A stretch of 28,618 bases of DNA from Reclinomonas americana ATCC 50394 (GCA_048213135.1 PS015022.1:62001-90618), one strand, 5' to 3'. Shown: positions 307 through 28,467, counted from the first letter of the stretch. Program-made: numbers and translations. Notes: a model not told the origin generated them from the sequence alone.

Positions 307-2271
307 TCATTCTTCATGCAACCCAAGTCGTACACGGTGATCGAATTCGTCACTCGGCAGCTGATCTCCGCGCGACTCATCGGCTCCGATGAGCGGCGTG
401 CGATCGTGTAATGCGAGTGGTGCTGGTGGTGACGGCGATGCTGCTGCTGCTGCTGGTGTGCCATTGCGAGACCGACTCTGTGCCATGCCCATCTCCAGCA
501 CCTCAATGTCGCCGAGCAGCGGTCGATTGAAGTCCTTGCGTCCCTCTCGCAGGTTGCGCTCAACCTTGTGCTCGGGCGCCAGTCGCGGTTTGTAATCTAC
601 GTGGACAAACGCTCGCTCCACGTCGTTCATCGCCTGTGGCGGGTGGTGGGGTCAGACTGTGCAAGCTGCGCACAAGTGGTGGTTCACGGTGTACCTCAAT
701 CCGATGCTGGACGAGCAGTGCAATGTCGTGCGACTCGGCCACCGTCATCTCGCCTGCAACGAGACGGGTGAGGAACGAAAAAAAGAGTGGTCTCTCCTGA
801 GTGTGACAACCCACCAGGCAACACCAGGTCGACCTCCACGACAATCCTGCATGCATCATGTCAACAACAGCTGGTTGCAACCCTCCGGCTCATCGCCACT
901 CAACTTTTCGCCAGCAAAGTACGCCACAATGCGATCCACGGGCGACTCGTCCATGTCGGCAAACACCTCCTGTTGCTTCACCAGCTCCTCCACTTCACGC
1001 ACGAATTCTGGGTCCGCAATGTGGCCGGCGATACGCCCGAGTGCCTCGTTTGCCATGTGCAGCCACGAGAAGAGAATCTGTCACGCAGCAGTGAGAGAAT
1101 AAACACACTGGCAGCGGATGGAGAGCAGCAGTGCGCACGTAGAGCGATATGGCCAGGGCTCCGATCGGATCCACGAACCAAAGGAAGCGCACCTGTGCGC
1201 CAATTGAGGCAGTGGCGATGGCCACGCTGTTGCTGAAGACGTCGTTGCGGTGGTCGGTGGCCAGCAACAGAGCCGAGCCACTGTGCCTGCACATGAAGAG
1301 AAGCGACTGTCGTCAGTGGCGACCTGATGAAGTCGCACTGTGGGCGTCGTGGCGCAACTTGCCGAGCCGGCGACAGTACAGGAACAGAAGGAACTTGGCG
1401 GCAATGGCCGCGCCCAGGGAAATGTATGTCGCCAGGTCCATGGTGACCAGCGCCGGGTTCTTGTGATACCAGCCGTCCCACAGATCACCAACGGCCTCCT
1501 TGATGACTGCGTGGGGAGGTGTGAGCCGCGAGAGGAGAGAAGTACAAGATGCGACCGACCTTCGAGATTGACCATTGACATAATGGCGGCCTGCACGAGC
1601 GTGTCGTGAGTGTAGGAAGGGAAGGGAAGGGAAAGAGGGGAAGGGGAGGGAGAAGAGTGCGGACCGTGACCATCATCCCGAGCGTCTCGTATCGCGATCG
1701 GCCGACAGGGAATCTCTCCGAGTGGGTCACCATCTTGCGACTTGTCCAGAACACCACTGGTGTGGAGGAGTGGTGGAGGAGATAGGCGGAGAGTGGGGTC
1801 AGCAGGCTGGTGAGATGAGAGGAGACAAGGAGAGAAAGGCAAAGATTCGAACAGGCGGTGGCTGATTGATGAAGATGCAATGCAGAAACACGCACCGACT
1901 TGACTGGTGAGGTCGACAACCGAGTCGCCCAAGCTGGCCAGCACCGACACGGAGCCAGAGACGAGATACGCGAAGAGCTTGACGCCCATTAGACCAACTG
2001 TTCATGCACACGAGTGGATCAGCGCAGCGCAGGTGCGTGTGCGGAATAGATCATGGAGAAGGCGAGAGACGGAACTGTTGGTGAGCAGTGACACCAGCAC
2101 CACGCGACTCACGCGCACCGAGAGGCGTGCGTGGAACTCTTCATCGGCCTCCTTGATTGGTACATTGGCTGTGTGTGATTCTCTCGGTGGTGCAACGACG
2201 GTCAGTTCGCGGTCGGCTGCGTTGACAGGGTGACTGCTTCTGTCGACAACATTGTCGGTGCGGTCTCCCAT
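307..2271 (-). CDS. Cation diffusion facilitator (CDF) metal transporter, Mn-CDF/MTP-like; ~10 exons
   Basis: Spliced translation gives VSLLTNIGLMGVKLFAYLVSGSVSVLASLGDSVVDLTSQ (TM1-2), RFPVGRSRYETLG, LATDHRNDVFSN (TM5), WFVDPIGALAISLYILFSW, IVVEVDLVLPGEMTVAESHDIA and DVERAFVHVDY. These are hallmark motifs of Mn-CDF proteins. ATG at 2271 is inferred; TGA at 309-307; 9 GT-AG introns. Confidence 0.92.
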
Positions 2272-2396
2272 CGACCACGAGGAAGAGAAGGAGGGACAAT
2301 GCATGTCCGAATATTCGATTGGTTTTCGAGAAACAGGCGACAACTTTGTGGTTGCAGCTGCGATACCAGCATGCAGCCTCACTAGTGGACTTCTGC

Positions 2397-2413
2397 AAAA
2401 AAAAAAAAAAAAA
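2397..2413 (+). repeat. Poly(A)17 tract in the divergent intergenic region
   Basis: Direct reading of the sequence. Confidence 0.9.
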
Positions 2414-3116: not shown

Positions 3117-6100
3117 ATGTCGACAGCCGCCGCCGCCGCCGCTGCCGCCGCTGCTGCTGGCTCGTCGCCTGCCTTTTGTGTCGTTCTCAGAGTTGCGTAC
3201 ACCACACACCTCTCTCTCTGCACACACACACACAGACACGCAATCACATGTGTATTGAGGTGTGCGCGTGCCATGGCACCACCAGCAGCACCGTTTCACC
3301 CTCTCTCTCTCTTTCTCTCTGGGACTCACACGCACCTTGTTGCGCAACAGGCCAAGGGCAAAACCCGCGGTGCTGTGGCCGTCTACCCTCCATATGACGT
3401 CACGGTGGAGAGACCCGGAGAGGAAGAGCCACTGGCGTTCCGATTTGCACGAGCTCTGCCTCCGCGAACACCACAGGTCGACTCTCCCTCTCACTCTCGC
3501 ACACACACACTCGCCACTCGTTTCCATATCTCACTGCTCGCGACACAGGATGCACTCTTTGACACGGCGGTGTGTGATTTGGTGGACGAGGCTCTCCACG
3601 GGTTTGATGTGACTGTGCTTGTCTATGGAGCAGCCAAGGTGTGTGTCTGTGTGTCTGCCTGGCGTTCCCTGCGCACTCCCTCATTGTGTGCATGCAGTCG
3701 GGCAAGTCGTTTACGGTGTTTGGCAATCTGTACGATGCCGACGACGCCGGCATTGCACCGCGCATTGTCACGCACTTGTTTAGCGTGTTGGAGGCGAGTT
3801 GGGAGATCTACGCACAGTTGTCAGTGGTGCTCTTGTGTATTGACTATAGCATGCGCTGTGTGTAGGACAAGTATGGGTCGGTGCGCCGCTCAGTCAGCGC
3901 ACCGCCACCGTACGAGGTGACGGCGTCGCTGTTGTCGATTCGCGACGAGTCTCTGGAGGACTTGTTCTTGGCGAGTGTGCCGACAGATGTGTTGCCGACG
4001 GTGGCCACCGATGCAGCGAGTGGAGCACGCACGTTGAGTCGATTGCTGTCATCGACTGATCGACAGTTGTTGTCATTGACTCACAAGTTCTGTCACAGCC
4101 GTCCTCGCAGCGCTTCTGGTGGTGGTCTGCGCGTGCGAGGCAGTGTCTCGCAGGGCTTTTATGTGGACAATCTGACGGAACGACCTGCTATCAACGCACA
4201 AGCCGCTGTGCAGTTGCGTCAGATCGCTCTCATCCCACTGCGTGTCCTCCGTCTCACTCGTCGACAGAGTGCTTGCCGAGGCGCTGCTGCGCAGTCGTGA
4301 CGGCCACCTAGTGTACACTGTGTCGGTGACACAGCGTGCGCTGGAGGCCGCCAAGAAGCCGCTCTTGTCGCGCATTCGATTGGTGGATGTGACGGGCGAT
4401 TGTCACTCGAAGGACAACAAGGATGCGTACGCTGTGACACGCGTGCTCGCCGCACTCTCGCAGCCGGGTGGAGTCCCGGTGTCGCTGGCCGCTGTTCCGT
4501 TCCGCGAGTCCAAGCTCACTTGCGTCCTCCACCAGTCGTTTGGTGGCAAGTGCAAGACGGTTTGCGCCGCCCTGTCGTCCACGTTGCGTGTGTGCCGTGC
4601 ACGTGCTCACAGACTTGGGTGACTGGCAGCGATTGATCGCCTGTGTGGACACCGAGTCGGCACAGGCCGCCGAGTCACTGCTAACGGTGCAGGTGGCCGA
4701 TCGTGCGCAGTGGATTCAGAACAAACCCGCCGTGATGTACCTGGAAGATGTGGTGGCCAGCAGCAGTGGATCGTCGTCGGCTGGACCCGAGTCGCACGCT
4801 CTGGTGGCGGAGCTGGCAGAGAAGCTGCGTGCGGAGCTCGAGTCAGAAAAGGCACGACTCGTGGAGGAGAACAAGCAGTTGCAGAGTCGCGTTATGCAGC
4901 TGGAGGAGGCAGCGTGGATGACACCCGACGCACCCGACACCTCCAACATGGAACGAGAGATTGCACAGCTGCGAGAGCAACTCGCACAGTCGGAGCAGGT
5001 GTGTAGTGGTGTCGACGCGCTTCCTTTTTGATTCCAAGAGTGCACGTCTCACGCCGTCATGTCGTCGTCGTCGTCGTGCACAGGCTCGACTTGCGTCGGA
5101 GCGTGCGCTGAAGCACGAGACGACCAATCAAGCCGTGCTGGTGGCCGCCGAGTCCGACAAGGTGATGGCGGTGACGCATTCGCTGAAAGAGGCAGAGACA
5201 CGTGCAGAGCAGGCCGCAGCCGAGACAGCCGCGTTGCGACGCCAGTTGGACACGCAGGCGGCTGACCGCACTCGCATGGATGGCCAGAAGAGGGAGCAGT
5301 TGCAGGTCGAGAGCGATCTGGCTGAGGCTCGTCAGAGCATTGTGAAACTGCAGCAGGAGAATGGTGCGTGCATCTGTGTGCGCCCCAAGCATGCCCTGCG
5401 TGCCAATGCCCTGACACCATTTGTGTACTTGTAGCACGCATCGAAACCGAGCTGGCCACGGTCAAGTTCAAGGCCATGCGTTCCGAGTCTGCGCTGGCCG
5501 AGGCGGCTGCACAGACACGCTCGCTGGAGAGTGAGAACGAGAAGCTGAAGAAGCTGGCAGAGCAACTGAAGGCGCGCGTGGATGAGTCGGAACGGAATGC
5601 GGAGGAGGCATTCGCCGCTGCGATGCGTTTGCCCGGGCTGGAGGCGGATCTGGCCGCGGAGCGCGCCGCTGTGCAAGACCTCAAGGCACAGGTGCATTCT
5701 GAGCAGGAGCTGCGAAAGGCGGCCGAGGTGGAGACGCAGGTTGGTGTGATCCCCCATTGCGGAATCGTCAGCTCTTTCGCCCCCTTCTCTCTGCTCAACG
5801 CACCCCTGTCGCACCGCAGAAACTGACCTCGGCCTCTGACCACAATCGACCGCTGCTCGATCAACTCAACGCGGACATCGCACGTGAGCGGGCGTCGGTG
5901 AAGCAGTTGACCACCGAGTTGCAGACGGAGAGGAATGCTCTCGAGGAGGCCTGGGCGCAGCTGTACGCTGCCGAGGCTGAAGTCAAGACGCTGCGTGATC
6001 AGGTGCAGGAGCTGGTCGACGCCAAGGTGGAGCTGGCCAACGAGAAGCAGCGCTACGCTGAGCTGCATCGCGCTCTGGATGAGGAACGAGCAGCGCACAA

Positions 6101-8547
6101 GGGCACCACCTCGCAGACCACTGCACGCAGTCAGCAGCTGTTTGACGACAACCAACGAGTTGCGTTGCTGCTGTCTCTTTTCTTTGATTGAGCGCACATG
6201 CACTCACGCCCTTCCTGTCCTTTTCGCTTGCGTCGCACAGTTGCAACACCAGGTGGAGGCGGCGGAGAGGACAGTCACGGAGGCACAGCGAGAGGCCGAG
6301 ATGCACCGCACGTCGGCGACGCAGCTCGAGCGGGAACTTGGAGTCGTGCGTCGCTCGGCTGAGCAAGCGAGTGGCGAGCTGAAGGCGGCACAGGCACACA
6401 TTGCGCAGTTGGAGGCGGAGGTCAGCAGCGCTGATGCACGCACCAAGGATCTGGAAACGCGCTTGTCGTCGCATGCCAGCAGCAAGGACGAGGTTGCTGG
6501 CGAGCTGGCTCGTGTGCAGGCGGAACTTGCCGAGGCACGGCGCGTCAACAAGGAGACCTCCGCCAAGGCCGGCAGCGCCGATGTGCTCAGCAGGCAAATC
6601 ACGGAGCTGGAGGCGCAAGTCGCGTCGCTGCACAGTCGTTTGGCCACGCAGGAGAGCGACTTGATTAGCTCGCGTACCGAGTTGTCGGAGGCGCAGCGCA
6701 AGGCTCGTGCCGCTGACGTGCAGGCTGCGCGAGTGCCTGAACTGGAGGCACAAATCACTGCACTGCAGGCTCGCGTACCGCCTCCGTCGCCCGGTGGTGG
6801 TCAGTCGGAGAGCTCTCGTGTGGCCGCACTCAAGGCTGAGCTGGAGGACGAGATCACGGAGCGACAGAATGTGGAGCAGGAGCTGGCGGCGGCGCGCGAC
6901 GAGATTGACGAGTTGCGAGAGCAGCTGGCCAGCGAGAGTGCCACACGACTGCCGCCGCGCCAGAGCACAGGCGACAGTGGTGATGGCGAGGCTGAAGAGC
7001 TTCGCATGCGAGTGGAGGAGCTGCAGGCCGACGTGGGTGAATTGCAGCGCATCAATGAGGAGCAGCAGGCACTCATGCAGCAGCTGACGGAGGAGCGCGA
7101 TCAGCTGGGCGAGGATCTCGAGTTCTTCAAGGACAAGAACGAGGAGCTCAAGTTGCAAACATCGACGGCCGAGAAGCGCAGCAAGCGACTGGAGGAGCAC
7201 TTGTCGTCGGCACTCAACCGTGTCACCGACTTGGAGAGTGCTGCACTGGCGCACGAGGCGCAGAAGAAGCAGGTGGCGTCGCTGGCGGAGGAGTTGCAGA
7301 CGGCACAGACGCGTATTCGACGTTGCGCGCATGTGTGTGTCGATGCGTGTTGCGCTGCGTATCTCACTGTTGTTCTTGTGGGGTGCAGATTTGGAGAGCA
7401 CAGCACGCGATCTGGACCAGGCGAACGCGGAAATGGCAGAGGAGCTCGGCAAGCTGCGAGTGGAGAAGAGACGGCATGCCGACCAGGTGCACCACGACGG
7501 CTCTGGCGCAGCGACTGCCGCCGGTGCCAACAAGGACGAGGTGGTGACACTGCGTCGCGATCTGGCGGTGCTGCGTGAGAGCCACACGGCAGTGCACGAA
7601 AAGTACGCGGCGCTCAAGAGCCAGTCGCAACAGCTGCAGGAGCGACACGACGCCCTGCAGGCGCAGTGTGCAGAGCTGCAGAGCAAGCTGGACGAGGCGA
7701 TGGCACGAGTGGCCGAGTTGGAGCAGCAAGTGGGTGACATGTCGCAAGGACGCACGGTGACCGAGGCGGCGTCGGAGGCCGAGAAGCGCACGCTGGCGCA
7801 ACGATGTGCCGACTTTGACCGGTTAGTGTCGGTGCAGCGCGAGACCATTCAGCGTCTGGAGGAGAACCACAAGAAGCGCGAGGAGGAGCTCAAGGCCTCT
7901 GTCGACGACTTGCGCCGCGACTGCGACTTTGCCAAGGAGGAGGCGCGAGTGGCCAACATGCGGTGCGAGGAACGAAGTTGCGGCGACAGCAGCAGATGGG
8001 CGAGATTGATGTTGGCGACTTGTGTGTGTGTGTGTGCTGACACTCTCTGTGTGCAGTTGTGCAGCTGCGCGACGTGACGGACAGATACCAGTTGATGCAG
8101 GAGCAAATTGCCGCCATGAAGTCCGCCTTTATCGAACAGGGCCAGGTGCTCCGTGCGCAGAAGCGGCACTTGCAGTCGCACATTAGCAAGCAGGAGCGCG
8201 TGAACCAGCTGCTCGAGGGCATGGGCAACAGCACCGTGAACCGCGTGCTGAGTCCGGAACGTGAGCGACCGCTGTCGGCACGGCCGAGCAGCACGCATCA
8301 CATGCTGGTCAATTCGGGAAGGCACTCGCCAAAACCAGCGCCGTCCTCCTCCTCGTCTTCATCGACCACAGCCAGCGGTGCCGTCACTGCCCGATCGCGC
8401 TCACGCTCACCGAACCCGTCCAGCTCGGCAGCCACCTCGGCCCGCTCCTCGGCGTCGTCGGCATCCGTCGCCTCATCCACAAGGCGAACGATCGGTGCCG
8501 GCAGCTCGACCGTGACACGAACCGTCACGTCGGCCCGCCGCAAGTAG
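3117..8547 (+). CDS. Divergent kinesin-like protein: N-terminal motor-like domain, long coiled coil, Ser/Arg-rich tail; ~14 exons
   Basis: Spliced motifs GFDVTVLVYGAAK|SGKSFTVFG (P-loop), GIAPR, GFYVDNLTE, IRLVDVTG, VPFRESKLTCVLHQSFGGKCKT|RLIACV and ESLLTVQVADRAQWIQNKP. These are followed by E/Q/A/L-rich heptad sequence over ~4790-8220 and TAG at 8545-8547. Confidence 0.88.
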
Positions 8548-8753: not shown

Positions 8754-9392
8754 TTACTCCAGGTCGTCAATCGTCACTTCCACCTCGACGCCCGGCTCGA
8801 TCGAGATCGACGTCTGTTCCACGCAAGCAAATAAGCCACAAGCGAGACACGTCTCCGCGAGCACGACAAACAACACGCAACAATCTTGCGGACAACGTCG
8901 GGGACCGAGTACAGGCGGATGACGCGCTTGTGGATCTTCATCTCGAAGCGATCCCACGAGTTGGTACCGTTACCGCAAGGGCTCTTACGGGTGGTGATCG
9001 ACAGGTTCTTGGTGGGAATGCGGATCGGGCTGCATGAACACACACGAATGAGCATCATGACACCATGAACGGCTGAGATCTCTCTTTGTCAACTCACCCC
9101 TTGACCTGCAGCTGCTGGTCCTTGGCGCGGGTGATGAGCTCCGAGCACACTGCACATGGGAAAACAGTCAGTCTTCTCTCTCTCTCTCTGGTTTCCTGCC
9201 ATGCCCTCAACACGCACCCTTCTCCAGCGCGCGCACAATGCGCGACGTCAGAGTGATGGTGATCTTGTGGACCTGCAGAAGCACACAATCATCAGTGACT
9301 GACTGGAGAGTGTGGGGAGACAAGAGTGAGAGAGGAGACAGCACCTTCGCGGCCGGGATATCCTCAGTGACCTTCTTCGGGGGAACCGCCAT
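8754..9392 (-). CDS. RPS20: 40S ribosomal protein S20 (uS10); 5 coding exons
   Basis: MAVPPKK...|[104 protein letters not shown], which matches the eukaryotic RPS20 pattern closely. Confidence 0.97.
8814..8881 (-). other. RPS20 intron with +1-shifted donor (ATT|GTTGCGT...CAG|ACG)
   Basis: Junction fixed by conserved RPS20 sequence [13 protein letters not shown]. Confidence 0.88.
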
Positions 9393-9801: not shown

Positions 9802-11804
9802 ATGTTGTCGACTGTTGCGTGCTCACCAGTGACGCGTGTGTACATGTGCATGCATTCATGCGCGTGTTATGTGTGCGGAAGAATTGAGCGCGAGCGAGTG
9901 AGTGCTGACATGTCGCGCTTGTGTTTCTCTCAGGTGTTGCGGCGCATGGTCGGCGCCCCCTCCATGACTGGTGCGCCTTGCTTGCTCTCGCACTCTGTGT
10001 GCATGTCTGTCTGCTCACTTCTGTGTGTGTGCGCGCAGGTTTCATCAGGTTTTTTGCTTCTCTCTTGTGTGCGCACTGTAACCCATGCATGACACTGTCT
10101 CTCTCTGCGTGCGTGATAGTCGCCCGGCTCCGTTTGTGATGGCACAGCGTGTCGCGTTGACTCGCGTCTTCTCCACGGGAAAGGGTGCGTCTCCCAAGCC
10201 ACACTCTGGTCTCTTTCAGCGCTCATGTCGATGATGTATGCAGAGCTCAACATTGTCGTGCCTTCCATGGGAGACTCGATCTCCGAGGGCACTATTGTCG
10301 AGTGGCTGCGCAGTTGCGTGAGTCATGTACGCACAGAGACAGGCACAGGAGGACACAACACACACACACACACACACACATACTCGTACACGCACGCACC
10401 CTTGCAAACACACACACACGCCACACCTATGCACATGGAGCGGTCGTTCTGAGTGAGCATGCAGAGCCCGGCGATTCCATTGCCGAGGACGAGGTGCTGG
10501 TGCAGCTCGAGACTGACAAGGTGGCGCGAGCTCGTCCTCTTTCTCCATCGTTCGTGCCGTCTCTCACTGCGTGTGCGTGTGAGTGAAGATCACGGTGGAC
10601 GTGCGTGCGCCTCAGGGTGGCACCGTTGTCAAGACGCTGGCGGCCAAGAATGATACCGTGTCGGTCGGACAGGTGATTGCGGTGTTGCAGACGGGTGCGG
10701 CTGGTGCTGGTGCGTCGATTCGTGTGTGTACAGTGTGTGGTTGAGAGAGAGAGAGAGAGAGAGAGATTGACACCGTACACAGCCAAGCCTGCTCCTGCTG
10801 CTGCTGCCGCCGCCCCGGCTGCCAAGCCTGCTGCTCCCGCTGCTGCTGCGGCGGCTCCGGCGGCTGCCCCTGCGAAGCCTGCTGCCCCGAAGCCGGCTCC
10901 GGCGCCGACTGCTGCTGCGCCGGCTGCCAAGTCGACTGACGAGCTGCAGGAGCGTCGTGTGCCCATGTCCAAGATGCGCAAGCGCATTGCCGAGCGCCTG
11001 AAGGAGGCTCAGAACACTTATGCAATGCTGACGACGTTTAACGAGGTGCGTGTGTCTCTCTCAACACACACACTCTCTCTCGTTTCCGTTTTCCCCACTC
11101 ACTCTCCGCACGAAAAAAAGGTGGACATGAGTGCGGTGATGCAGCTGCGCAACGAATTCAAGGACGTGTTTGAGAAGCGCCACGGTGTGAAGCTCGGCTT
11201 CATGTCGGCCTTTGTGTACGCCGCGTGCATTGCGCTGCAGCGAGTGCCGGCGGTGAATGCGGTGATTGACGGCGACGATGTGGTGTACCGCGACTACTGC
11301 GACGTCAGCGTGGCAGTGGCGACTCCAAAGGGCCTCGTGGTCCCCGTGATCCGCAACGCCGAGAAGCTGTCGTTTGCCGGCATCGAGAAGGAGATTGGCA
11401 GACTGGGCGAGCTCGCTCGCGTCGGCGGTCTGACGATTCAGGATGTTGCGTGCACGCGCGTGTGTGTGTGTGCGCCCTGCATTCCCTCCCTCCTCCTCCT
11501 CATCTCCTTCATCGACTAAATGCAGATGCAAGGCGGCACCTTCTCCATCTCCAACGGTGGCGTGTTCGGCTCTCTGATGGGCACACCCATCATCAACCCG
11601 CCACAGTCGGCGATTCTCGGCATGCACGCCATCAAGGACCGCGCAGTGGTGGACGAGAAGACCAAGCAGGTGGTGGCCCGACCCATGATGTACATTGCGC
11701 TCACCTACGACCACCGATTGGTCGACGGCCGCGAAGCCGTCACCTTCCTCAAGACCATCAAGGAGATCGTGGAGGACCCGCGCCGCATCGTGCTCGACAT
11801 CTAA
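9802..11804 (+). CDS. DLST: Dihydrolipoamide succinyltransferase (E2 of 2-oxoglutarate dehydrogenase), mitochondrial precursor; ~10 exons
   Basis: Arg-rich presequence (MLST|VLRRMVG...RVFST), lipoyl domain [42 protein letters not shown] and an Ala/Pro/Lys linker. The catalytic domain reads [23 protein letters not shown]...[32 protein letters not shown]...[21 protein letters not shown] at 11802-11804. Confidence 0.96.
10313..10464 (+). other. DLST intron with +1-shifted donor (A|GTTGCGT...CAG|AG), containing (CA)n
   Basis: A phase-1 junction restores EWLRKPGD of the lipoyl domain; the nearby GTGAGT at 10318 gives the wrong frame. Confidence 0.85.
11445..11525 (+). other. DLST intron with +1-shifted donor (GAT|GTTGCGT...CAG|ATG)
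   Basis: Restores [15 protein letters not shown]; in-frame TAA inside the intron. Confidence 0.88.
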
Positions 11805-14900: not shown

Positions 14901-15919
14901 TGTGTCTTTTGTGATTGACGACGCTCTCCGACATCAAGTGTCGTCGATGCTGCACGTCACTGGTGAAATGTCGGCGTGGACTGACGGAACCGACAGGTGT
15001 GGTCCTAGTGCGTGCTGAGGGAGGTTCAGAGTGTTGCCGCTGAACAAAGTGGTTGTATACCAGATCACCATCTCCACCGGGAAAGATGACGGCATCGACG
15101 AGGATGGGGCGGCGGAGTAGAAGTAGCAGTGGCCATGCGCGAGGTGAGCCATGTTTTGGATAACGCATTCTTTCAAGATGATACTCACTCTTCTCCACGT
15201 CCCCGCACAGCTCGATCAGCGGCGGAGCGACGAAGACAGCAGACCGAGTACGAGTGGAACACAGAGCAGGACAAGCAGCTGCGGCGCAAATAGTTGTGTG
15301 CTGATGTGGTGCTGAGATTTTCATTGGCGCACACCAGTTGGTCTTACCGCGCTCCGCGCAGTACCGACGTGTTGCCGGTGTTTGCTCGACCACTGATTCT
15401 TGGACGACCGTCAAGTGCTCTGCTGGCACCACCGGACGCGCGCATGTTTCGTAGCCGCTGTCGCATCCGTCCTCGTTGTTGCCACTTGCTCACCCCTCTC
15501 CCCCCCGCACACAGCCTGGGACGAGTTGCCGATCGACCGCAGAGTGCTGCGCATGTGCCGTCTCGCTCGCGGTCACCGTCCCTCAATGCGCGTTCACGAT
15601 CGGTCTCTGCCCTCGGTCATCGACCTCCACTAGGTACCGCCCGACGCAGACAACCACCACCCTCTCTGTGCACGCCACTCACGTGTATTCTTTGCGTGCA
15701 GGCATGACAGGTCTCGCAAGCAGCGGAGACATGAGACCACCATCGCGACCGGCGAGTCCGGCCGATGCATGGGAGGCAACAGTAATGTCGCCATCGCCAG
15801 CAGCGACACCCGCAGCTGCAGCCGGTGGTGGTGGCGGGCGATCGATCTCGCCCGACGTGGTGCGACCGGCCTCGTCCAGCATGCGACCACATCGCGACGC
15901 ATCCGTGCGGTGGGAGTAG
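11920..15919 (+). CDS. Large multi-exon hypothetical protein (~20 exons) with helical N-terminus and Ser/Pro/Arg-rich low-complexity segments
   Basis: Open segments can be joined in consistent phase through ~19 GT-AG introns from ATG 11920 to TAG 15917-15919. I recognise no family motif, so several junctions are uncertain. Confidence 0.6.
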
Positions 15920-16083: not shown

Positions 16084-16913
16084 TTACTGGCTCACAACTG
16101 CAGATGCAACAAGGATGAGAGCAGTTCGTTGACAACGGCGACAACAGCGACAGCCAACGCAACTCGACAGGTAGATGCCCCACACGAAGGCCACCATGTT
16201 CGAGAACAAGACGCGGAAACGCACCGGCACAAAGCTGCACACACAAGTGAACAACCAAGACTTGAAACTGCATGCAGTGCACGAGCGCACGAACCGGAAG
16301 TTGATGAGCTGCGCCACAGGCCACAGCTTCCACCCGGCAAAGATGGTGGGGATCACTGTGGTGGCCAGCGTGCGCGGGATATCACCCGGTCGCCCATCCG
16401 CCGCCGCCATGAAGCTGAAGAACGCCGAGGTCATAAACAGCGCAAACAAGGTCTGATCGACCGCCAGCTTGATCATCATCTGACGAAAGAAGAGGCAGCA
16501 CGAGTGAGCACAGACATGCAACTAACACTCTCTCTCTCTCTCTCTTACCTTTCCACTGCCTACATAACGCTCGAGTAGCTTGTGCCAGTGATGCACCAGC
16601 ACACCAGCAATGGCTCCCCACGTGCCAAACCTCAGAGTCTTGCCAAAGGCAAACGACCACACACGACCAGCACGCAGTGCAGCACCGCGCTCAAAGCCCA
16701 CTTGCGCAATCACATTGGAGAGCACAGACAGAGTCGCGGATGTGAGAGACTGCACACACGCGAGTGAGTGTGTGTGTGTGAATGAGAGCCAGTGTGTGTG
16801 TGTGTGTCAACTGATACCTTTGTGAGGATGGGCTTGTGCTCCAGAGACTTTTCGTAAAAGCCGAGGATGCGTCGCCACAGTGGCACCGATCGTTCTTCCT
16901 TGCTCAACGCCAT
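16084..16913 (-). CDS. Mpv17/PMP22 family membrane protein; ~5 exons
   Basis: YEKSLEHKPILTK|SLTSATLSVLSNVIAQ, HHWHKLLER, KLAVDQTLFA, GWKLWPVAQLINFR|FVPVRFRVLFSNMVAFVWGIYLS are the family signatures. Confidence 0.93.
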
Positions 16914-17037: not shown

Positions 17038-19305
17038 TCAGACGCGATCAGCTGCAGCGCCACCACTGGTGAAGTCGGCGGAGGCTGTCGGTGCGTGGCT
17101 GCGCGTGGCCACAGGAGCAGCACTGGCGGCGGTCATTGGGGAGGTGCGAGTGGCGACGGCGACGCCACTGGGTGAGGCTCGTGAGCGTGGAGAGGCGGCT
17201 GCGTTGAGCTGGTTCGTGAGACGTTCGGCTTCGCGCTTGCAGCGATCGCCGAGCTGCGCCTTGAAGCGCTGCTGCTCGCTCTGCCAGAAGCGGTCGTCGC
17301 GGAAAACGTGCGGCTCGCACAGGTAGCGGCGGCGCACGTCGACGAGGCACGGTACGACCATCAGCTTGGCCAGCAGGCGGCTCAGTGACCTGCGATTGTG
17401 AACGTGAGGACAATTCTTGTCGACAATACTGGTGGGTCCGGAGACGGTACGCAACGCCCACAGGTTTCGCCACTCGACGAGCTCGCTGACCTTGTCGTCG
17501 TCCATGTCCAACGACGGCGGCAGCACGGAGCCGTCAAAGAGGCGACCGTCCTCCCACTCAATCTCAGTCCGGGTCTCCGACGCCTGCCACGGATCAAAGA
17601 GCGCCACGAAGAGGTCGCCCTTGATGCCAGCCGCTCCGCGTTGCATGAACCAGTGCGGCGAGGAGACAAACGAGCGCAACACCTGCACGAGCACCTTCTT
17701 GCGTGCCGGAGTGAGTCGGTCGTCCTGATAGTCGTCGGCGTTGCCGCCGGCTTCCTGCGCTCGAGAGGAGAAGCGTGAGAAGGAAATAGGAGGCGAGGGA
17801 ACGAGAAGAGGTGTTCTGACAGCACCAGCATCTGCTCGATGCGGCCGACGAGGGCGTCGCAGGTGCCGGTGATCATGTTGTGCGCGTCGGCCACTGATGG
17901 CGAGTGTGTGAGACTGCAACTTTCCCCAAAAAGAATAAGAGAGTGAAGCAGTGCCACGAAACAAATGCCGTCGATGAGCCGCTTTGCGTTCTTGCGCTCC
18001 GCCGACAGCATCGGGTCCTGCTCGAGATCGCGGTTGGAGCTGGACATTGACCCGCGGCGCAGCTGCGTGCCCTCCAGCGTGGTGAGGTCGTGCAACAGCT
18101 GCGGCACCGTCTGCTTGGCGGGGATGAAGCGCTCGACCACCGCCGCGAAGCCGGCCTTCAGACGCGTCAGCTGGTCCACTTGCGGCGTCCGGGAGAACGT
18201 GCCGTACTCGACCAGCGCACCAGCGTAGCGGCGGATAATGACCTCGCGGTAAAAGTACTGCAGGCAGGGAGGAAAGTAATATCAAACAAACACAAGGGTA
18301 ATGCAGTGCAACAGCAACCGACCTCCATGAACAGAGTGAACTCACTGTGCGAGCAGGAGGCAAACATGAGAGGCTACACGTGGAGGATTAGGGCGTTGCA
18401 ACAGAGACGCACTCGCGCTCCATCTTCTTGTTGCTGTCCAGATCAAACTGCGTCATGATGCTGTTCACATGGACGGCGTCAATGTGGTCCACCAGCGCCT
18501 TGGTGCTGGCCTCGGTGATCGGCAACGGCGCCGCATCGCGCATGTGATCTACGTACGAACTTAAACGAGCAGCTCAGCAGCTCAGCAGCAGCACACACAA
18601 CGCGCACCCGTAAGCCGCTCCCGGAAGTGCTGGATGAACTCGTCCGGCTCAATCGTTCCCTGCGCATGATCGCTGTTAGTGGCCGAGGGTGGAAAAGGCT
18701 GAAGGCAGAAAAAGCGAACACGCGCCGACTTGTCTGTATCAATCTGTGCAAAGAAGTCGTCGAGATCCTGCTGCCAGCCGGGCGTACGGAAGCGCAGCTC
18801 CACAATCGAGACTAGTGTAGCCCACGCAACATAAAAACACAAGCACATGGGATCCGAGGAAAGACCGAAACGCAACTGCACCACTCGACATACGCGCTCG
18901 CCGCATGCTGCAACTGCACATCCAGCAGGTGCCGCTGGAAGAACGGCAGAGGCACGAACGTCGGAACTGTTGTACACCACGTGAGCAAACAGACACGTGC
19001 GTTGCTGTGAGAGAGACGCAACTGTGTCCATCTCTCTTGACCTCCAACAGCTTATAATCCGGCCACGACTCCACGGGCAGTCGCTGCACACGACGCGGAG
19101 CAGCTGCACTCATGGCCACACCCACAGGCGACAGCACTCCACTGCCTCCACCTCCACTGCCACTCTCCTGAGAGTGCGAGGTGCGCCGATGACGAGTGGC
19201 CGAGAGAGGCGCCTCATAGTCGACATACGCCGCGTCCAGTGCCGTCAGAGGCGCAACACCCGCGCTGAATGGCGACTGCCACTCAGACGTGCAACAGTTG
19301 CCCAT
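17038..19305 (-). CDS. EF-hand calcium-binding protein with N-terminal MGNCC dual-acylation motif; ~9 exons
   Basis: Starts MGNCCTSE. Splicing reconstitutes a canonical EF loop FAQIDTDKS|GTIEPDEF and a second, degenerate loop FDLDSNKKMERD|EF. The C-terminal half is unrecognised. TGA at 17040-17038. Confidence 0.75.
18660..18725 (-). other. GC-AG intron (TCG|GCGCGT...CAG|GGA)
   Basis: Only this donor yields the 12-residue EF loop DTDKSGTIEPDE. Confidence 0.75.
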
Positions 19306-19399
19306 CTCTGAGACAGACTGACACAAGCGACGACGGATTTCGCGAGCAACTAAGTGTGCTTTTAGTTGTTGGTTAGGCGCGCGCCTTTTTGCCCGCCAG

Positions 19400-20546
19400 A
19401 TGGGCGGTTGCTGTAGTCACGACAGCAAGCCGCCTGCGCACGGAGAGGCGCCTATAGGTGCGCAAGGTGTGCAGGAGGGGCCCACGCGGTTGACACCGAG
19501 CTCCGGGACGCCGAGTGGAGCTGGTCTTGTGCAGCCGGTGCCTACGCGGCCCTCGCCGACAATGAAGAAGCACGAGTGGCAGGAGGATGATGGCGATGCA
19601 GAGGTTAAGAGTCACTCTCAGTCGCTTGTTGCGCAGAGTGATTACGCGTGTGATCCCGCGCAAGTGGTGCGTTGTTCATTTGCCTGTCGCTCACGCCTCA
19701 CTCGCTAACAACAACCGTGGTGTTAGACGCTGGTGCAGTCGGAGAACAGTTGCGCGCGCTGCTCTCTGTCTTCTCACACCTGTCTTGCTCACCACTGTTG
19801 TATGTAGTCTATGTGCGGTACTTGGCGCGTAAGGTGCCGACGGGTCTGCTGGCCAGCGAGGCCGAGCAGCAGGCGTTGGTGGATGTCACAGATTTCCTTC
19901 GTTGCGCCATTCTCTTGTTGTTGCATTTTCGTTGTGGGTTTGTCATGGTGTTGGTGTGTGCAGGTCGTTTGGTGCAGAAGCATCTGAAGAACGGCAAGGA
20001 GGCGGGGCGTATCATCTTCCGCGAGTCGCAAAAGGCGCTGGATGACTCGAGTGCGTCTTGTGTGCCTTGTGTGCTGCTGCTGTTGTCTTCGCACATAATG
20101 TATGCGTGTGCAGCGGATCCGCTGGTTGACTTGCTGCGCTCGCTGGGCGAGTCGGAGCGTTTGGCTGCGCGTCCGGAGAACAAGCGTGCGTCTGTGCGCA
20201 GAGTGAGCGTCTTGGCGGATGTGTTGCGCTTATTGTGTTTTCGTGCAGTGCCGCTCATCTCGTTTGGCGTGTTCTACCTGCTGTACAACGAGGCGTTTGA
20301 CAAGATCTTTGCGGCGTACGAGCAGTACGTCAGTGAGCACCCCGGCACCACCTTCAATCGCACTGTGTGCACGTACATCAAGAGCGTGCTGCAGCTGCGC
20401 ACCGAGATGAAGTTCAAGCCGAGCGTGCACACGGATCTGAGCACTGTGCTGAGCACGTACGCTCGCCAGGGCGAATTCCGAGCGCCGGCATATGTCGGCC
20501 TTTCGCTCCGCACCGTGGAGTTGCTGCGTGTTGCCGGTATGTATTG

Positions 20547-20579
<33 letters not shown>

Positions 20580-21400: not shown

Positions 21401-21511
21401 TACTGCAACCAATGCAACGGGATCTCCAGTGTGTGTGCAATGATGCGAATGCAATTAAAAAAAACAGAGTGCGTTACTGTACATTTTTCCACCCCCCCTC
21501 CACTACGTGTG

Positions 21512-23371
21512 TCACACGGGATCGCTGGATCTCCGCCGAGCCTCTGGCATCAAGCGCTCACGTCGCAACACATCTCCGAGTTCCCGCGCGCGCAGCGCCA
21601 CCATCGGGTCCTCGTGTCTTGCCAGCGAACGCGACATGTCAACTGCTGTCGCCAGCAGTGGTGGCGGGCAGTAGGTGCGCACCACATCGCCATCGGCCAG
21701 CACGTTGCGAAGGAGCCAGAGAGAAGCCGACAAGAGAACGAACCTTGGTTGCCTTCTCGCTGGTAATAGTGGTGGAGGTGGTGGTGGTGGTGGATTCGAA
21801 GGTAGTGCTGGTGGTGGTGGTGGTGGCATCGAGACGGGCGGTGGTATGGGCGGAGGAGGCGGAGGTGGCCCAGAGGATGATTCTGAGGCGCTGGTAGTTG
21901 TCGTGGTTGTGGTTGTGGTTGTGGTGGTCTCCGTGGACCTGCCAGGCGACTGGCAAAACTCGACCATGCGGTCGACAAAGGACGACTGCAGCAGAATCAT
22001 TTGGTTCACCGCGTTGCCCTCTGTCGCAGACAAAGGCACACTGCTATGAGTTCACAGCAGTATTTCATCTTCATCACCAACGAATTTCAACAGACCAACA
22101 AAGGCCGCCAGCGCAGTGACGGCAGCTCGCCGGTGGCTGAGCTTCGTGTCCGCCAGTCGGATCAGAGTCTCGCCAATGTTGCTCTCGCGTAGCGCGTTCT
22201 GGTAGAGGCAAGAGATGGCCCGATCCTTGGCTGTACAATCGGCCAGAATCGCCATGTTGCCGACCAGTCGGCAGGCGGCTAGCTGCGCGCACACACCACA
22301 ACGAGATCAGTGCACGGCCGCACATGCATCACTGTGCAGGATTTCGTGCACGCAACAGATACGTGCGTGTCGGCTTCGTAGAGCAGCAGCGGCACGATCA
22401 GCTCCTGGAATGCCGCCTGCAGCATCGCATCGACGACTTTCACCACTCCGCGCAACAGCGTCGTCAGGCTGTCGGCCAGCGACATGGCCACTTCGCGATG
22501 GTCCGTCGCTCGAGCGTGCTCATGCAGCAGCTCGGCGACCGTCTCCAGTCTGCGTGCTTCCGCACCTAAGTGGCCTGCTTCTTGATGACGCAGATAGACA
22601 CAGACACACACACACCTCTCCAGTGCCACCGCTGCGTTGGCTGCATGCCCGATTAGCAGCGTCTCTTCGTCCACCGACTGGTTCAGCCGCTCAGTGGCCT
22701 CGACGCAATAGCGGGTGACTTGCGCATCGACGGCCGACGGCAACTTGAACGCCATATCGACAAACTATGATGCCTTGGAGTGAGTCGGCGATCCCAGCAG
22801 CGTCTGCGCAAGGATCGCACACCTGGTGGAACTCAATAAACTGCTCCTGAAAGTACTCCATCTTCTCGCGTGCGTGGCCCGCCGTGCACCAGACGGCGAA
22901 TCGCTGCCACGAAGAGCGTTCCCGATCCGCCGACTTGCTCAGCCAGTCAAACATGGCCTGGCCGAGCACCTTGCGACAATCGCCTGGCGCCAGCACCAAA
23001 CAGACCGCACATCAGTAGATCAACGGAGCAAGCAGCACACCTGCACCACATGCAATAAGCGGACCTGTGATGGTAAAGTTGCGCAGACGATCAATCGCCG
23101 GCAGCAGCAGTGAGACATCCCTTCGTTGCACCACTGTGGTCTCCACCAGCACATGGATCAATGAGGTCCGCAAAGAAGGCTCGCTGTGGTGCGAGGCATG
23201 CTGCACGGCCGATCGATGCGCCAGACTGTGCATGTGTGAGAAGAGGAAGATTCGACTTCTTTGCAGTGTGTGAGGTCACCTGTCATCGTCGGCGCTGTCG
23301 TCGTAGTCATCATCATCGTCATCGTCGTCGCGGTTGCCACTGGTGGGCGCACGAGTGGCGCTCGCCGACAT
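21512..23371 (-). CDS. Hypothetical ARM/HEAT-like helical protein with acidic N-terminus and Thr/Pro-rich insert; ~7 exons
   Basis: MSASATRAPTSGNRDDDDDDDYDD start. Segments LAACRLVGNMA, RRAAVTALAAF and SASLWLLRNVL resemble ARM helix-3 patterns. Poly-Pro at ~21765-21875. The fold assignment is inference. Confidence 0.6.
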
Positions 23372-24360: not shown

Positions 24361-24539
24361 TGTCGAGAACAAAAGTTCTGTTGGAAGTGAAGTTGTCCTG
24401 TGCGGACTTTCTTGTGTTTGCCGCGCTTCTCCGTCGTTGGAGCATTGACTGTGTGTCGACGCGTGTGCTCATCTACACGCGGGAGTGCATTCAACCGCAG
24501 CGAGCAAGAGATACGTGAGGCAGTGCAAGTCGGGTGGAA

Positions 24540-27500
24540 ATGGCCCGCTCAAGTACGTTTTTTGTGCACACTTTGACCGCACACTTTCACACACGCGCGC
24601 GCACATTCCCTCACGCCACAGTGGACGCAGATGTGCAGCGGAGAGTTGTGACAGCAGTGATTGTGCTGTCACTAATGATGATGATGATGATGATGTTGGC
24701 GGCGGCTCCAGGAGTAATGGGACTGCGACATCGAACCTCGCGCAGTCATCATCAGAAACAGCAACAGGAACAGCAGCATGTGTCAATGGACCAAATGGGC
24801 GCTGTGTCAATGGCAGGCGACACTGGTGATGACGGCATGAGTTGTGTTTGCGTCAGCCGAAGCCCAGATAGTCTCCCGCCACGTGGCGATCTCACTTGTT
24901 GTCTTGTCGCGCACGCAGTGGATGATGTGTTTGATGTGATTGTGGAGCAGCGTGAGGGCGATGGAAAGTTTGTGGTGATCATCGATGGTTCGTCTCTCTC
25001 TCTGTCCGCGCGAGTGTGTGTGCCACGTGGATTTGCTGAGGTGTTGTGACGTGGTGCAGGCGAGGAGCTGCAGTTGCCGGAGAGCTTCCAGCCGCAGGTG
25101 GATCCGGAGACGGGCATGATTATGCTGTCGGAGACGGAGATGCAGCAGGTGGAGACGCTGGTGGATACGATGCAGCGGGCGTTGAGAAATCTGGAGCGGG
25201 CGATTGCGGATAATGAGGTGTTGCATGACGGTGGTGGTGATTCGGCGCCGCCACCCACCACCACGAGTGAGCTTCCGGCTGGTCAGCCAGCGGCAGAGGG
25301 AGCGACGGTGCAGGCTGGTGATGAGCCGGGGAAGGAGGGCGAGGGCGAGGAGCCAAAGGAGGAGGAAATCGAGGTGCCGAAGGATCTGTACGGGCAGGCG
25401 GAGGATGCGCGGTCGAATCGCGAGTTTGAAAAGTTGAGTCGCCCTTTGCATGCGTCGGTGTACTTGACTCGGTGGCTGATGATGTGTTGCGGCAGGGCGG
25501 TTGAGCTGTTGCAGCGTGCGGTGGAGACGGAGAACTCGACCGACGCGCAGCTGCGTCTCGGCCTTATGTACGAGGTACGGTCGCATGGCGATGTGCGACA
25601 GGGGTCGATTGCATTCCTCACTTGCGTGATGTGCAGTACGGCGAGGGAGTGCAGCAGAATTGGACGCTGGCGGCCGACCATTTCGCCAAGGCCACCAACA
25701 AGGGCAACCCCAAGGCGATGCACGAACTCGGCTTCTGCTACATCAACGGTCTCGGTGTGCCGCGCAATCTGGGAGTGGTGAGTGCTCTCCTTCGTTGCTC
25801 ATGCGAGTCTTTCTCTCTCTCTCTCTCTCTCTGTCGCTCTCTCGCTCACCGAGCATCTATTGTAGGGCCTGTTGCATTGGCATTTCGCCGCACGAGCAAA
25901 GAACGTGCCGGCATCGCTGGCCCTCGGCCACCGCTACATGTATGGCATCAATGTGGAAAAGTCGTGCGAGAGTGCGGCACCGTACTATCGTGTGGCTGCC
26001 GAGCAATGTTGCGAGCAGAGTGTTTTTCTATGTGCGTGTCGGTGATGCTGACCCGAGGGATCGTGATGTGTGCAGCGGTGTTGCAGCACATGGCTCAGGA
26101 GAGCCACCCGTACGACCTGATTGATCTGATGAACCCGGTGGCCATTCAGGAGAAGGAGCGCGAGTCGGATCTCATTGAGCTGTACGAGTACTCGGCGGCA
26201 AAGGGCGACACCAAGGCACAGGTCTGCTTTTCCGTGCATCTGAACCCCTTCTCATTGTCGAGTTCCGGCTGCCTGACACGCGGCTTCGTCACAGTTGTAC
26301 CTGGGTTACGCCAACCTGCTCGGCTGGAACGGTCTGCCGCAGAACCGGCCCGCAGCCGTGGAGTACTTTGAACAGGCTGCAGCTGGCGGCGATCCTGGAG
26401 GTCACGCCGCTCTCGGCCAGGTGTTTGTGCAGGGCTTGGGCGTGAAGCAGGACAACAAGACTGCGCACGAACATTTCAAGAAGGCCGCCGATGCTGTGCG
26501 TCACGCCATTGTGCTTTCGTATGTGATTGTCTGCCTCAGCTCTGACATGCTTGTATTCGCCACTGCAGGGCCACGCTGGCGCGCAAAATGGACTGGGTAC
26601 GTGACTCGTCGTCGTCGAGGACTGCACGGTGAATGCATGCTCATTGTTCGTTGCTCTGCAGGCTACCTGTACTTGAATGGTCTCGGCGTGCCAAAGGATC
26701 CGGAGCGTGCTCTGCGCTACTTCCGCGCCGCTGCCGAACAGGGCAACCCCGAAGGTCAGTTCAACTGCGGCTTCATGCACCACCACGGACACGGAACGCC
26801 GGTCAACCACGCCATGGCCTTCCAGTACTACTCCAAGGCGGCGGCACAGGGACAGGATCTGGCCACCTTCCAGATGGCGGAAATGTACCTCAACGGACAG
26901 GGAGTCACGCGCAGCTGCTCACAGGCACTCAAGCACTACAAGAAGATGGCGGAGAAAGGTATCGTGTGTACACGCAGTATTGTATGTGTTGTCGAGGGGC
27001 TGTGTGTGTTCACTCGTGATGTGTGCTCTGCCAGGCACTTGGACCGATCTGATTGACGATGCCTATGCGTCGTACATGGACGGTGACTACACCATGGCGC
27101 TGCTGGACTATTTGCACGGCGCCGAGCGCGGGTACGAGGTGGCGCAGAGCAACGTGGCTTTCATGTTGGAGCGCCGTCTGGGAGTCGAGGCCATCTTTGG
27201 TCCCGACCCCATGGCCACGGAGACTGCCGTGGCGGCGCTGGCTGCCGAGCGGAAACAACTGGAGGATGCCAATAAGGCCGCCAAGGACAGTGGCGAGCAA
27301 CAGGCACAGCAGCAGCAGCAGCAGCAGCAGCAGCAAGTGGTCACGCAACAGCAGGCCACGGAGCTCAAATTGGCGCAGCAGGCCGCAGCTGACCGTGAGT
27401 TCGCCATTGACCGCCTCGCGCTGCAGTGGTACTCGCGTGCTGCCATGCAGGGACATGTGAAGGCGAACTTGAAGGTGTGTATATGCCGTTTACTCCCGCA

Positions 27501-28465: not shown

Positions 28466-28467
<2 letters not shown>

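Follow-up and report, generated by a model that had tools for sequence, protein, structure and literature searches.

Does this locus use a second class of 5' splice sites, and if so, how are these sites read? For the 28.6-kb stretch of DNA from the genome of one intron-crowded eukaryote that was analysed here (the window), the initial annotation had proposed that, interleaved with the usual donors, many introns start with GT-T and carry the G/T core at +6/+7 and not at +5/+6, and it listed 28 such sites. GT-T was found on the strand given for each of them (28/28). The motifs were GTTGCG at 19 sites, GTTGAGT at three, GTTGTGT and GTTTCGT at two each and GTTCCGT at one; GTTGCGA was found at one site among the 28 and GTTGCGG at another. 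All splice junctions discussed in the following were modelled from genomic DNA. In these models the displaced G/T core was borne out by position counts and by three junctions fixed with protein profiles, and the second donor class was confirmed as real, making up about one quarter of the modelled introns in the window.

The genes were parsed with a gene finder that was trained on the same window and used coding potential, the acceptor signal and intron length, the donor information being restricted to GT. This donor-blind parse recovered 19 of the 28 listed sites, and 25 of 28 were recovered with a two-component donor model, which was itself derived from the parse's own first pass; 3192+, 12836+ and 15446+ were recovered by neither. 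In the donor-blind parse GTTGCGT was picked at 9 of 17 sites compared with 111 of 2028 (5.5%) other sense-strand GT sites (odds ratio 19, p = 1e-7), and GTTNNGT without G+5 at 14 of 33 (p = 9e-10); the control heptamers GT[ACG]GCGT were picked at none of 11. A two-component mixture established on the 120 donor-blind donors separated nnG/GTGnG (61%) from Ann/GTTGCG (39%; the slash marks the junction), with the same split from three seeds, and the second-class motif held 3.25 bits compared with 2.1 bits for the canonical one. When non-donor GT sites were sampled instead, a component of the Ann/GTTGCG type appeared in 0 of 20 samples. Of the 26 second-class donors, 19 have one or more open-frame alternatives within 60 nt that combine G+5 with a YAG acceptor.

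Protein-family profiles could be applied to three sites, and the GTT junction was the top-scoring one at all of them (3/3). For 8881- in the uS10 gene it ranked first among 27 open-frame junctions by 11.8 bits with a profile of 71 homologues, and the alignment across the junction was gapless; a TT...AGN alternative scored 1.6 bits lower. In the DLST gene, for which a profile of 85 homologues was used, 11445+ ranked first among seven alternatives by 10.4 bits and 10313+ was the best of 20 with 557.0 bits, the runner-up reaching 553.4 (margin 3.6) and a GTGAGT 5 nt downstream 552.2 bits. That the test works follows from the recovery of canonical junctions in the same two genes (9217-, 9097-, 11046+ and 10521+). 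The profile scores thus place the predicted junctions at the three conserved sites 8881-, 11445+ and 10313+ exactly.

The share given initially, 28 of about 94 introns or about 30%, is close to our own: 25 of 93 confident introns (27%) are second-class in a set from which one spurious antisense gene was dropped and in which introns of 45-140 nt with a YAG end were kept. With the learned donor model and before filtering the number was 26 of 110 predicted introns, and in the donor-blind parse it was 19 of 97. As had been described, second-class and normal donors are intermingled on both strands, and the introns of the second class occupy all three phases (5, 11 and 9). The figure of 9 of 11 genes proved too low, as at least one second-class donor was predicted in 11 of 11 modelled multi-intron genes, counting 22356-, a likely extra member missing from the first list. 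The sites are compiled in Table 1.

Table 1. Predicted second-class donors in the window. Blind, donor-blind parse; learned, parse with learned donor model; alternatives, open-frame junctions; sequence, claimed motif present in the DNA.
Motif	Position	Strand	Gene or region	Support	Remarks
GTTGAGT	898..904	-	CDF (cation-efflux) gene	learned only	junction ...AGEK/IVVEVDLVLP
GTTGCGC	1352..1358	-	CDF gene	blind	no alternative with G+5 and YAG acceptor within +/-60 nt
GTTCCGT	2069..2075	-	CDF gene	learned	no canonical alternative; next exon begins at Cation_efflux profile position 10
GTTGCGT (claimed)	3192..3198	+	kinesin intron 1 (159 nt)	sequence	stretch stop-free in 3030-3917 frame
GTTGAGT	4033..4039	+	kinesin motor region	blind	0/27 alternatives canonical
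GTTGCGT	4213..4219	+	kinesin	learned only	blind took GT 5 nt downstream, acceptor shifted
GTTGCGT	6159..6165	+	kinesin coiled coil	all three parses	
GTTGCGC	7322..7328	+	kinesin coiled coil	learned only	blind took GT 9 nt upstream
GTTGCGG	7977..7983	+	kinesin coiled coil	blind	less certain: nine canonical-looking alternatives in GT-repeat
GTTGCGT	8875..8881	-	ribosomal protein uS10/S20e gene	profile, blind	
GTTGCGT	9814..9820	+	DLST gene 5' part, N-terminal presequence region	learned only	
GTTGCGT	10313..10319	+	DLST lipoyl domain	profile, blind	
GTTGCGT	11445..11451	+	DLST catalytic domain	profile, blind	
GTTGCGT	12265..12271	+	orphan gene 11920-12850	blind	
GTTGCGT	12600..12606	+	orphan gene 11920-12850	blind	
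GTTGCGC (claimed)	12836..12842	+		sequence	both parses end gene at stop 12848-12850
GTTGCGT	13660..13666	+	gene 13511-15633	learned only	no canonical alternative
GTTGTGT	15293..15299	+	gene 13511-15633	blind	
GTTTCGT (claimed)	15446..15452	+		sequence	parses prefer GTs at 15451, 15460
GTTGCGT	16157..16163	-	Mpv17/PMP22 gene	all three parses	Pfam Mpv17_PMP22 match in an upstream exon
GTTTCGT	17956..17962	-	orphan gene	blind	only 3 alternatives
GTTGCGT	18870..18876	-	orphan gene	blind	no canonical alternative
GTTGCGT	19016..19022	-	orphan gene	all three parses	
GTTGCGC	19749..19755	+	gene 19562-21897	blind	only 3 alternatives, 0 canonical
GTTGCGC	19901..19907	+	gene 19562-21897	blind	
GTTGCGT (likely, ambiguous)	22350..22356	-	Methyltransf_16 gene	learned	blind took in-frame GTATCT 6 nt upstream
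GTTGTGT	24841..24847	+	Sel1-repeat gene	blind	
GTTGAGT	25433..25439	+	Sel1-repeat gene	blind	
GTTGCGA	26008..26014	+	Sel1-repeat gene	all three parses	

Comparison of the two classes gave the consensus (C or A)AG/GTGCGT for the usual donors and A/GTTGCGT for the second class. Among the 25 second-class donors T+3 is present in 25, G+4 in 23 and C+5 in 20; position +5 otherwise holds A (3) or T (2) and never G, which the class definition excludes. A new observation is that the exon-side preference appears to be displaced too, as judged from position -1. G at -1 occurs in 0/25 second-class donors compared with 40/51 canonical ones, and perfect GTGCGT donors carry it in 8 of 12 cases (p = 1.3e-5 against the second class), while A at -1 was found in 13 of the 25. 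In the donor-blind set A at -1 was enriched as well (10/19 compared with 12/67 non-donor look-alike sites, p = 0.0055); the depletion of -1 G relative to non-donor GTTNHG sites did not reach significance in this set (1/19 compared with 10/67, p = 0.44), significance being confined to the contrast with canonical donors and to the enrichment of A, and positions -2 and -3 showed no clear shift in the second class (n = 25). The remaining donors without G+5 mostly carry AG before GT.

That no real class exists, the list reflecting a bias of hand modelling together with chance copies of GTTGCG or an assembly artefact with a spurious T after GT, is very improbable. About 18 GTTGCGY are expected by chance in the window, but 36 were counted, compared with 18.4 +/- 4.5 in 100 shuffles, of which none (0/100) reached 36. 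Relative to the gene strands GTTGCGT occurs 17 times in sense and once in antisense orientation, the corresponding numbers for GTGCGT being 30 and 26, and the 17 sense copies are composed of 13 predicted donors and four intronic copies, with none in 17.4 kb of exon. A modelling bias is opposed by the donor-blind enrichment and by the three homology-backed junctions. An extra T within introns would leave every reading frame intact, but an overcalled T would also keep the -1 G at the canonical 78%, and its absence from all second-class donors argues against such an artefact. The predicted second-class introns start with GT, end with CAG or TAG and keep the frame open in 25 of 25 cases; CAG/TAG acceptors were likewise found in 51/51 canonical introns. 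The median length is 69 nt (canonical 68 nt), and the CTNAY branch motif (CT[CGA]A[CT], 8-50 nt from the 3' end) is present in 19/25 compared with 35/51. A mobile, introner-like intron family might be suspected from the shared 7-base start and from 14 bases common to 12265+ and 19022-, and introns of the minor spliceosome (U12-type) were considered along with it; both are extremely improbable, since branch motif, length and acceptors are the same as in canonical introns. An all-against-all blastn search of the 93 introns turned up no second-class family, the matches being confined to microsatellites (14-21 nt), and the GTTGCGT start is unlike the U12-type donor motif. Non-conventional or intermediate introns of the Euglenozoan kind were ruled out by the GT-YAG borders and by an end pairing no different from canonical (duplex energy of 5' with 3' end -7.7 for the second class and -8.8 for canonical introns, p = 0.09).

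In our view these are probably genuine U2-type GT-AG introns with a second frequent 5' splice-site motif, most likely read in a +1-shifted register. Placed side by side, the main motif (C or A)AG/GUGCGU and the second motif A/GUUGCGU show a single difference, the replacement of the usual +1 G by U. In the second class the cut would be moved upstream by one base, to the GU that this U forms with what is the -1 G in the main motif. The snRNA that is the first to read the motif (U1, standard or variant) probably pairs one base out, and the exact cut would be set later by the sole available GU via U5, U6 and Prp8. We infer both the pairing partner and this two-step mechanism. Pairs were counted against the U1 5' end given in PMC4856993, a standard sequence from which that of this organism may differ: the +1 register was best in 20 of 25 second-class donors with five ties, and the canonical register was best in 45 of 51 canonical donors. 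The mean pair count of the second class was 6.5 in the shifted and 4.0 in the canonical register. In predicted duplexes with the standard U1 end the second class reached -1.6 kcal/mol, random GT sites -2.9 +/- 2.1 and canonical donors -6.2. As the second class is predicted to pair more weakly than random GT sites, a shifted standard U1 would leave the conservation of UUGCGU unexplained.

This last point bears on a different reading, according to which the same donors are recognized by a dedicated snRNA variant, for example a second U1 with a 5' end complementary to CAGUUGCGU; in the candidate variant an A would replace the C opposite the displaced U. We regard such a variant as conceivable, though on the whole unlikely. 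The U1 5' end ranks with the most highly conserved sequences of any RNA, which counts against it, and no snRNA gene was found within the 28.6-kb window. The stronger conservation of the second-class motif compared with the canonical one and its weak predicted pairing with the standard U1 end speak in favour of a variant, as does the good discrimination by a hypothetical, fully complementary 11-mer (-10.3 compared with -5.0); an 11-mer fitted to the canonical motif discriminates poorly (-6.3 compared with -5.8), but nearest-neighbour energies leave out U1-C and other proteins. The variant would require more than one U1 sequence in the cell, for which human variant U1 snRNAs are a precedent (PMC3561869, PMC10870369), transcribed and processed human variant U1 genes being recorded in PMC3561869. 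Alternatively, U1 might pair in the canonical register with a bulge formed by the additional U at +3 (or +2). One-nucleotide bulge registers at these positions are established in human (Roca et al., 2012, according to PMC4856993), and like the human bulge sites the intron side here resembles the consensus with one inserted U, being read equally well as GU + U + GCGU. With a bulge, however, position -1 would still pair and a canonical-like -1 G would be expected; unlike in human bulge sites, the exon side is out of the canonical register. The enrichment of A and the lack of G at -1 favour the +1-shifted register, as do the pair counts, and a bulge is decidedly unlikely. Also clearly unlikely is a reading in which the U6/U5 stage and not U1 is chiefly responsible for recognizing the motif, with G+6/U+7 pairing with the U6 ACAGA box across one extra spacer base and the missing -1 G representing a known trade-off in which exon-side strength is exchanged for strength on the intron side. 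The AG before GT in most donors lacking G+5 fits such a trade-off, but perfect GTGCGT donors have an equally strong intron side and keep -1 G in most cases, so that the trade-off alone cannot produce its complete absence, and the invariant T+3 and the -1 A would be left unexplained. For the STAT3 tandem donor a one-base displacement of the U6 register has been proposed, in the opposite direction (PMC11162779). As there, the distance from the cut to the putative partner G of U6 C42 differs from five bases; in STAT3 it is one base shorter, which concerns one regulated site and is backed by experiments (PMC11162779), and here it is predicted to be one base longer.

The preferred reading, a +1-shifted register, has a counterpart in human, where shifted (+1) U1 pairing was described by Roca and Krainer (2009; cited after PMC4856993 and PMC11162779), and the initial likening to these rare sites was apt. 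As in the human sites, GU would be kept as the cut while the snRNA pairs one base downstream, and the test oligonucleotide shown in these sources likewise carries A at -1 and consensus G/U at +6/+7. The human shifted sites are rare, any non-canonical register being estimated for about 1.5% of human 5' splice sites (PMC11162779), whereas the class described here comprises about 27% of modelled introns and occurs in every gene. Unlike the human sites it has its own tight consensus, UUGCGU, for which only weak pairing with the standard U1 end is predicted. The NN//GURAG (U6-type) class was ruled out as an identity for these donors, since G at +5 is found in 0/25, by class definition, and GTTGCG in 19/28 of the listed sites; in that system G+5 is present in both classes, while here +5 is C in 20/25 and the G lies at +6. 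Unlike in the NN//GURAG system, strong canonical donors here retain -1 G. As in that system, two separable donor classes occur in one genome, and one of them lacks the exon-end G and depends on the intron side.

The window, of 28.6 kb with a G+C content of 0.56-0.63, is densely filled: about a dozen genes, encoded on either strand, contain roughly 100 short introns. The genes that could be recognised are listed in the table, and several orphan genes accompany them. A scan of the window with the Rfam families, including those for snRNAs, gave no match at E<=1. Two low-complexity stretches lie within it, a run of about 17 A between the CDF and kinesin genes (2398-2414) and, near its 3' end, a long (CT)n tract after which come short repeats of the CGGT type (28440-28500).

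Recognised genes of the window with their positions
Gene product	Position	Strand	Remarks
Cation-efflux (CDF) transporter	307-2271	-	Pfam on exons
Divergent kinesin	3117 to about 8660	+	long coiled coil
Ribosomal protein uS10/S20e	8757-9392	-	complete, four introns, 120-residue product
DLST (E2 succinyltransferase of 2-oxoglutarate dehydrogenase)	about 9800-11804	+	
Mpv17/PMP22 protein			
Methyltransf_16 protein			
Sel1-repeat (SEL1L/Hrd3-like) protein			

Protein searches returned no near-identical counterpart of DLST or uS10. The best match of DLST was 84% identical, and the third exon of uS10 (49 residues) reached at most 78% identity among the representatives of a library of 1.8 billion proteins. 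Since 78% is low for uS10, this value points to a lineage whose close relatives have not been sequenced. The top matches with readable names came from plants and a jakobid transcriptome, and the 80 metagenome loci retained in a scan with a DLST exon did not exceed 67% identity. Homologue searches with a kinesin exon and with a CDF exon found nothing, nor did a PDB sequence search with the latter. Two NCBI-sourced DLST records among the matches carry about 40 residues of the catalytic domain twice in tandem, which looks like a gene-model error and inflates their match score. The antisense "genes" at 10564-11383 (-), opposite DLST, and 16175-16456 (+), opposite Mpv17, were rejected as shadow ORFs of a G+C-rich genome; the former was left out of the final counts, and the latter (282 nt, intronless) falls below the 300-nt cutoff.

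The initial annotation had proposed, besides canonical GTGCGT/GTGAGT-like donors with G at +5, a second class of 28 GTTGCGT-like donors with G and T at +6 and +7. All 28 sites indeed read GT-T on the strand assigned to them, 19 of them GTTGCG. The heptamer GTTGCGY occurs 36 times in the window compared to 18.4 +/- 4.5 times in shuffled sequences. As about 18 copies are thus expected by chance, a hand modeller could easily over-read the motif, which raises the question of whether the sites are real donors. An exon-chain gene finder learned its codon usage, its acceptor matrix and the composition and length of introns from the window itself, with the dinucleotide GT as its sole donor information. 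This donor-blind parse is crude, many canonical donors being misplaced and many junctions wrong until a two-class donor model was used, and it picked 19 of the 28 sites. Among 2045 sense-strand GT dinucleotides within gene spans, 120 of which were picked, GTTGCGT was chosen in 9 of 17 cases compared to 5.5% of the remaining GT (odds ratio 19, p=1e-7). The main motif GTGCGT was less strongly enriched (9/30), and the control heptamers GT[ACG]GCGT, with another base at +3, were never chosen (0/11). A two-component mixture fitted to the 120 donor-blind donors separated nnG/GTGnG (61%; the slash marks the cut) from Ann/GTTGCG (39%), with the same outcome from three seeds; when non-donor GT were sampled 20 times in equal number, no such component arose. 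The motif is moreover strand-biased, with 17 sense and one antisense copies of GTTGCGT as against 30 and 26 of GTGCGT. Thirteen of the sense copies are predicted donors, four are intronic and none falls within 17.4 kb of exon. One of the intronic copies is 3192+, a donor in the initial annotation, and another follows a predicted donor at a distance of 6 nt.

For two well-conserved genes the junctions could be scored against protein profiles of 85 DLST and 71 uS10 homologues, thereby considering all open-frame GT...AG alternatives within 45-60 nt. The uS10 donor 8881- (GTTGCGT) ranked first of 27 junctions by 11.8 bits, with a gapless alignment over the junction, and the GTT-type DLST donor 11445+ ranked first of seven alternatives by 10.4 bits. 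At 10313+ in DLST the second-class junction came out best of 20 (557.0 vs. 553.4 for the next), with 552.2 for a canonical-looking GTGAGT five bases downstream. The canonical junctions 9217- and 9097- of uS10 and 11046+ and 10521+ of DLST were likewise recovered, so that the GTT type makes up three of the seven resolvable junctions of these genes; two further junctions sit in variable regions. Per-exon Pfam coordinates were too sparse for the kinesin and CDF junctions except for the canonical 3639+, which is contiguous (profile position 83, then 86). Two DLST introns, 10521-10588 and 11046-11120 (+), end in AAG (GTGAAG and AAAAAAAG) and not in CAG or TAG; the profile of DLST ranks both junctions first, with margins of 10.1 and 6.9 bits.

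A parse with the two-class model, learned from the first pass, gave 110 introns, of which 58 have G at +5 and 26 belong to the GTT type, the other 26 having donors of neither kind. It recovered 25 of the 28 sites, the exceptions being 3192+, 12836+ and 15446+, and 22356- is likely to be an additional member according to this model. The initial annotation had put the second class at 28 of about 94 introns (about 30%). That the class is frequent was borne out, and the modelled figure is 25 of 93 (27%), counted over introns of 45-140 nt ending in YAG after removal of the spurious DLST-antisense "gene". The use of all three phases was confirmed in the modelled introns; the class is not confined to nine of 11 genes as had been stated, all 11 modelled multi-intron genes holding at least one such donor. 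For seven of the 26 second-class donors there is no open-frame alternative with G at +5 and a YAG acceptor, and for 20 no GTNNGT alternative exists.

Apart from their start, second-class introns match the canonical ones. Their median length is 69 nt (canonical 68 nt), their acceptors are CAG or TAG, and a CTNAY motif roughly 20 nt upstream of the 3' end was found in 19/25 and 35/51, respectively. G+C content, folding energy and end-to-end pairing did not differ between the classes. Many introns contain (GA)n, (CA)n or (GT)n microsatellites, which account for the sole intron-to-intron blastn matches, and past the first seven bases the second-class introns have no other sequence in common. Because of this overall agreement they are classed as ordinary U2-type introns, and neither as introner copies nor as U12-type introns nor as introns resembling the euglenozoan non-conventional ones.

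The two classes differ on the exon side as well. Canonical donors, (C/A)AG/GTGCGT, have G at -1 in 40 of 51 cases, whereas second-class donors, A/GTTGCGT, lack it throughout (0/25) and have A in about half of the cases (13/25). Perfect GTGCGT donors keep the G (8/12, p=1.3e-5 vs. second class), and the difference is therefore not the usual trade-off between exon and intron strength. In the donor-blind set, A at -1 is again enriched over non-donor look-alikes (10/19 vs. 12/67, p=0.0055); the depletion of G (1/19 vs. 10/67) is not significant there. CAGGTGCGT and CAGTTGCGT are one base apart, the cut moving from after CAG to after CA. The new point would thus be a displacement of the exon-side consensus along with the intron side, which is the pattern predicted by a +1 shifted register, with U1 pairing one base downstream. 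In the rare shifted-register sites of human, as described in PMC4856993 and PMC11162779, U1 pairs in this way and the cut stays at GU. Scored against the 5' end of U1 as given in PMC4856993, which may differ from that of this organism, the number of pairs was highest in the +1 register for 20 of 25 second-class donors, with five ties, and in the canonical register for 45 of 51 canonical donors.

An extra T overcalled in the assembly would also turn GTGCGT into GTTGCGT, but it would leave G at -1 in 78% of the donors, and the observed 0/25 excludes it as the cause. The same argument makes a bulged U unlikely, since the remaining pairing would be canonical and G at -1 would likewise be retained. 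Other positions of the cut fare no better: with a cut one base downstream (TT...AGN), YAG acceptors no longer preserve the frame and the uS10 score drops by 1.6 bits, and a true donor at the GT of +6/+7 requires a 5-nt frame change and is absent among the best profile alternatives. The shifted register, deduced here from sequence statistics, is less well matched by predicted duplex energies, which are those of naked RNA and ignore proteins. With a standard U1 end they amount to -1.6 kcal/mol for the second class, -2.9 +/- 2.1 for random GT of the window and -6.2 for canonical donors. UUGCGU is more conserved than the canonical motif, and a hypothetical partner complementary to CAGUUGCGU separates second-class donors well from background (-10.3 vs. 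-5.0), whereas a single U1 fitted to the canonical motif does not (-6.3 vs. -5.8). Such energies lend some weight to the proposal of the initial annotation that a dedicated snRNA variant reads the second class, which we consider possible but rather improbable. Equally improbable is the wider scheme of two 5' splice-site specificities in the major spliceosome, in which, alongside the usual U1, an extra U1-type snRNA or other small RNA complementary to CAGUUGCGU would mark roughly every fourth intron, the cut would lie one base off the pairing geometry, and recognition and choice of the cut would be uncoupled genome-wide. If G+6/U+7 were to pair with the ACAGA box of U6, six bases, not five, would separate the cut from the G:C pair. 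According to PMC11162779, a U6 register displaced the other way has been put forward for one human site.

Non-canonical U1 registers are already known as a class of mechanism. The 5' splice site is read twice, by U1 and subsequently by U5 and U6 at the catalytic centre, and the 5' end of U1 is normally near-invariant. To our knowledge, uncoupling of the two readings is known solely from a few rare or engineered human sites. If the shifted register is true, the genome would be a natural test bed with high numbers, about a quarter of its introns having the motif one base off the cut, and it would reveal how the cut site is set, whether U6 ACAGA pairing tolerates six instead of five bases and whether the U1 5' end has diversified. 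Gene finders trained with a single donor matrix will mis-model about every fourth intron of this organism. The rarity of shifted registers in human, as assumed by the initial annotation, agrees with PMC11162779, where all non-canonical registers together make up about 1.5% of sites; here, in contrast, a shifted class with a consensus of its own comprises about a quarter of the modelled introns. No report of a genome with a shifted donor class at a quarter of its introns was found among the matches listed in searches of the running text of open-access papers, and GTTGCGT, GUUGCGU and GUUGCG as whole words occurred there in one unrelated preprint only. The intron borders of diplonemids, given in PMC12621601 as (G)/GTATG or non-GT-AG, are unlike the GTTGCGT class.

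Some individual donors deserve mention. Those at 9338-9344 (-) and 17819-17825 (-) read GTGCTGT, i.e., GTGC + T + GT, with G and T at +6/+7, and may represent a further displaced register whose additional base is at +5. The kinesin intron parsed at 4543-4612 (+) deletes the peptide GGKCKT. With a donor at 4560 (+) instead, the upstream exon ends in ...SFGGKCKT and matches positions 199-298 of the Kinesin profile. Read by eye, an intron 4560-4629 (+) joins this exon in frame to RLIACVDTES; its donor is GTTTGCG with G at +5, and the GTTGCGT at 4583 then falls within the intron.
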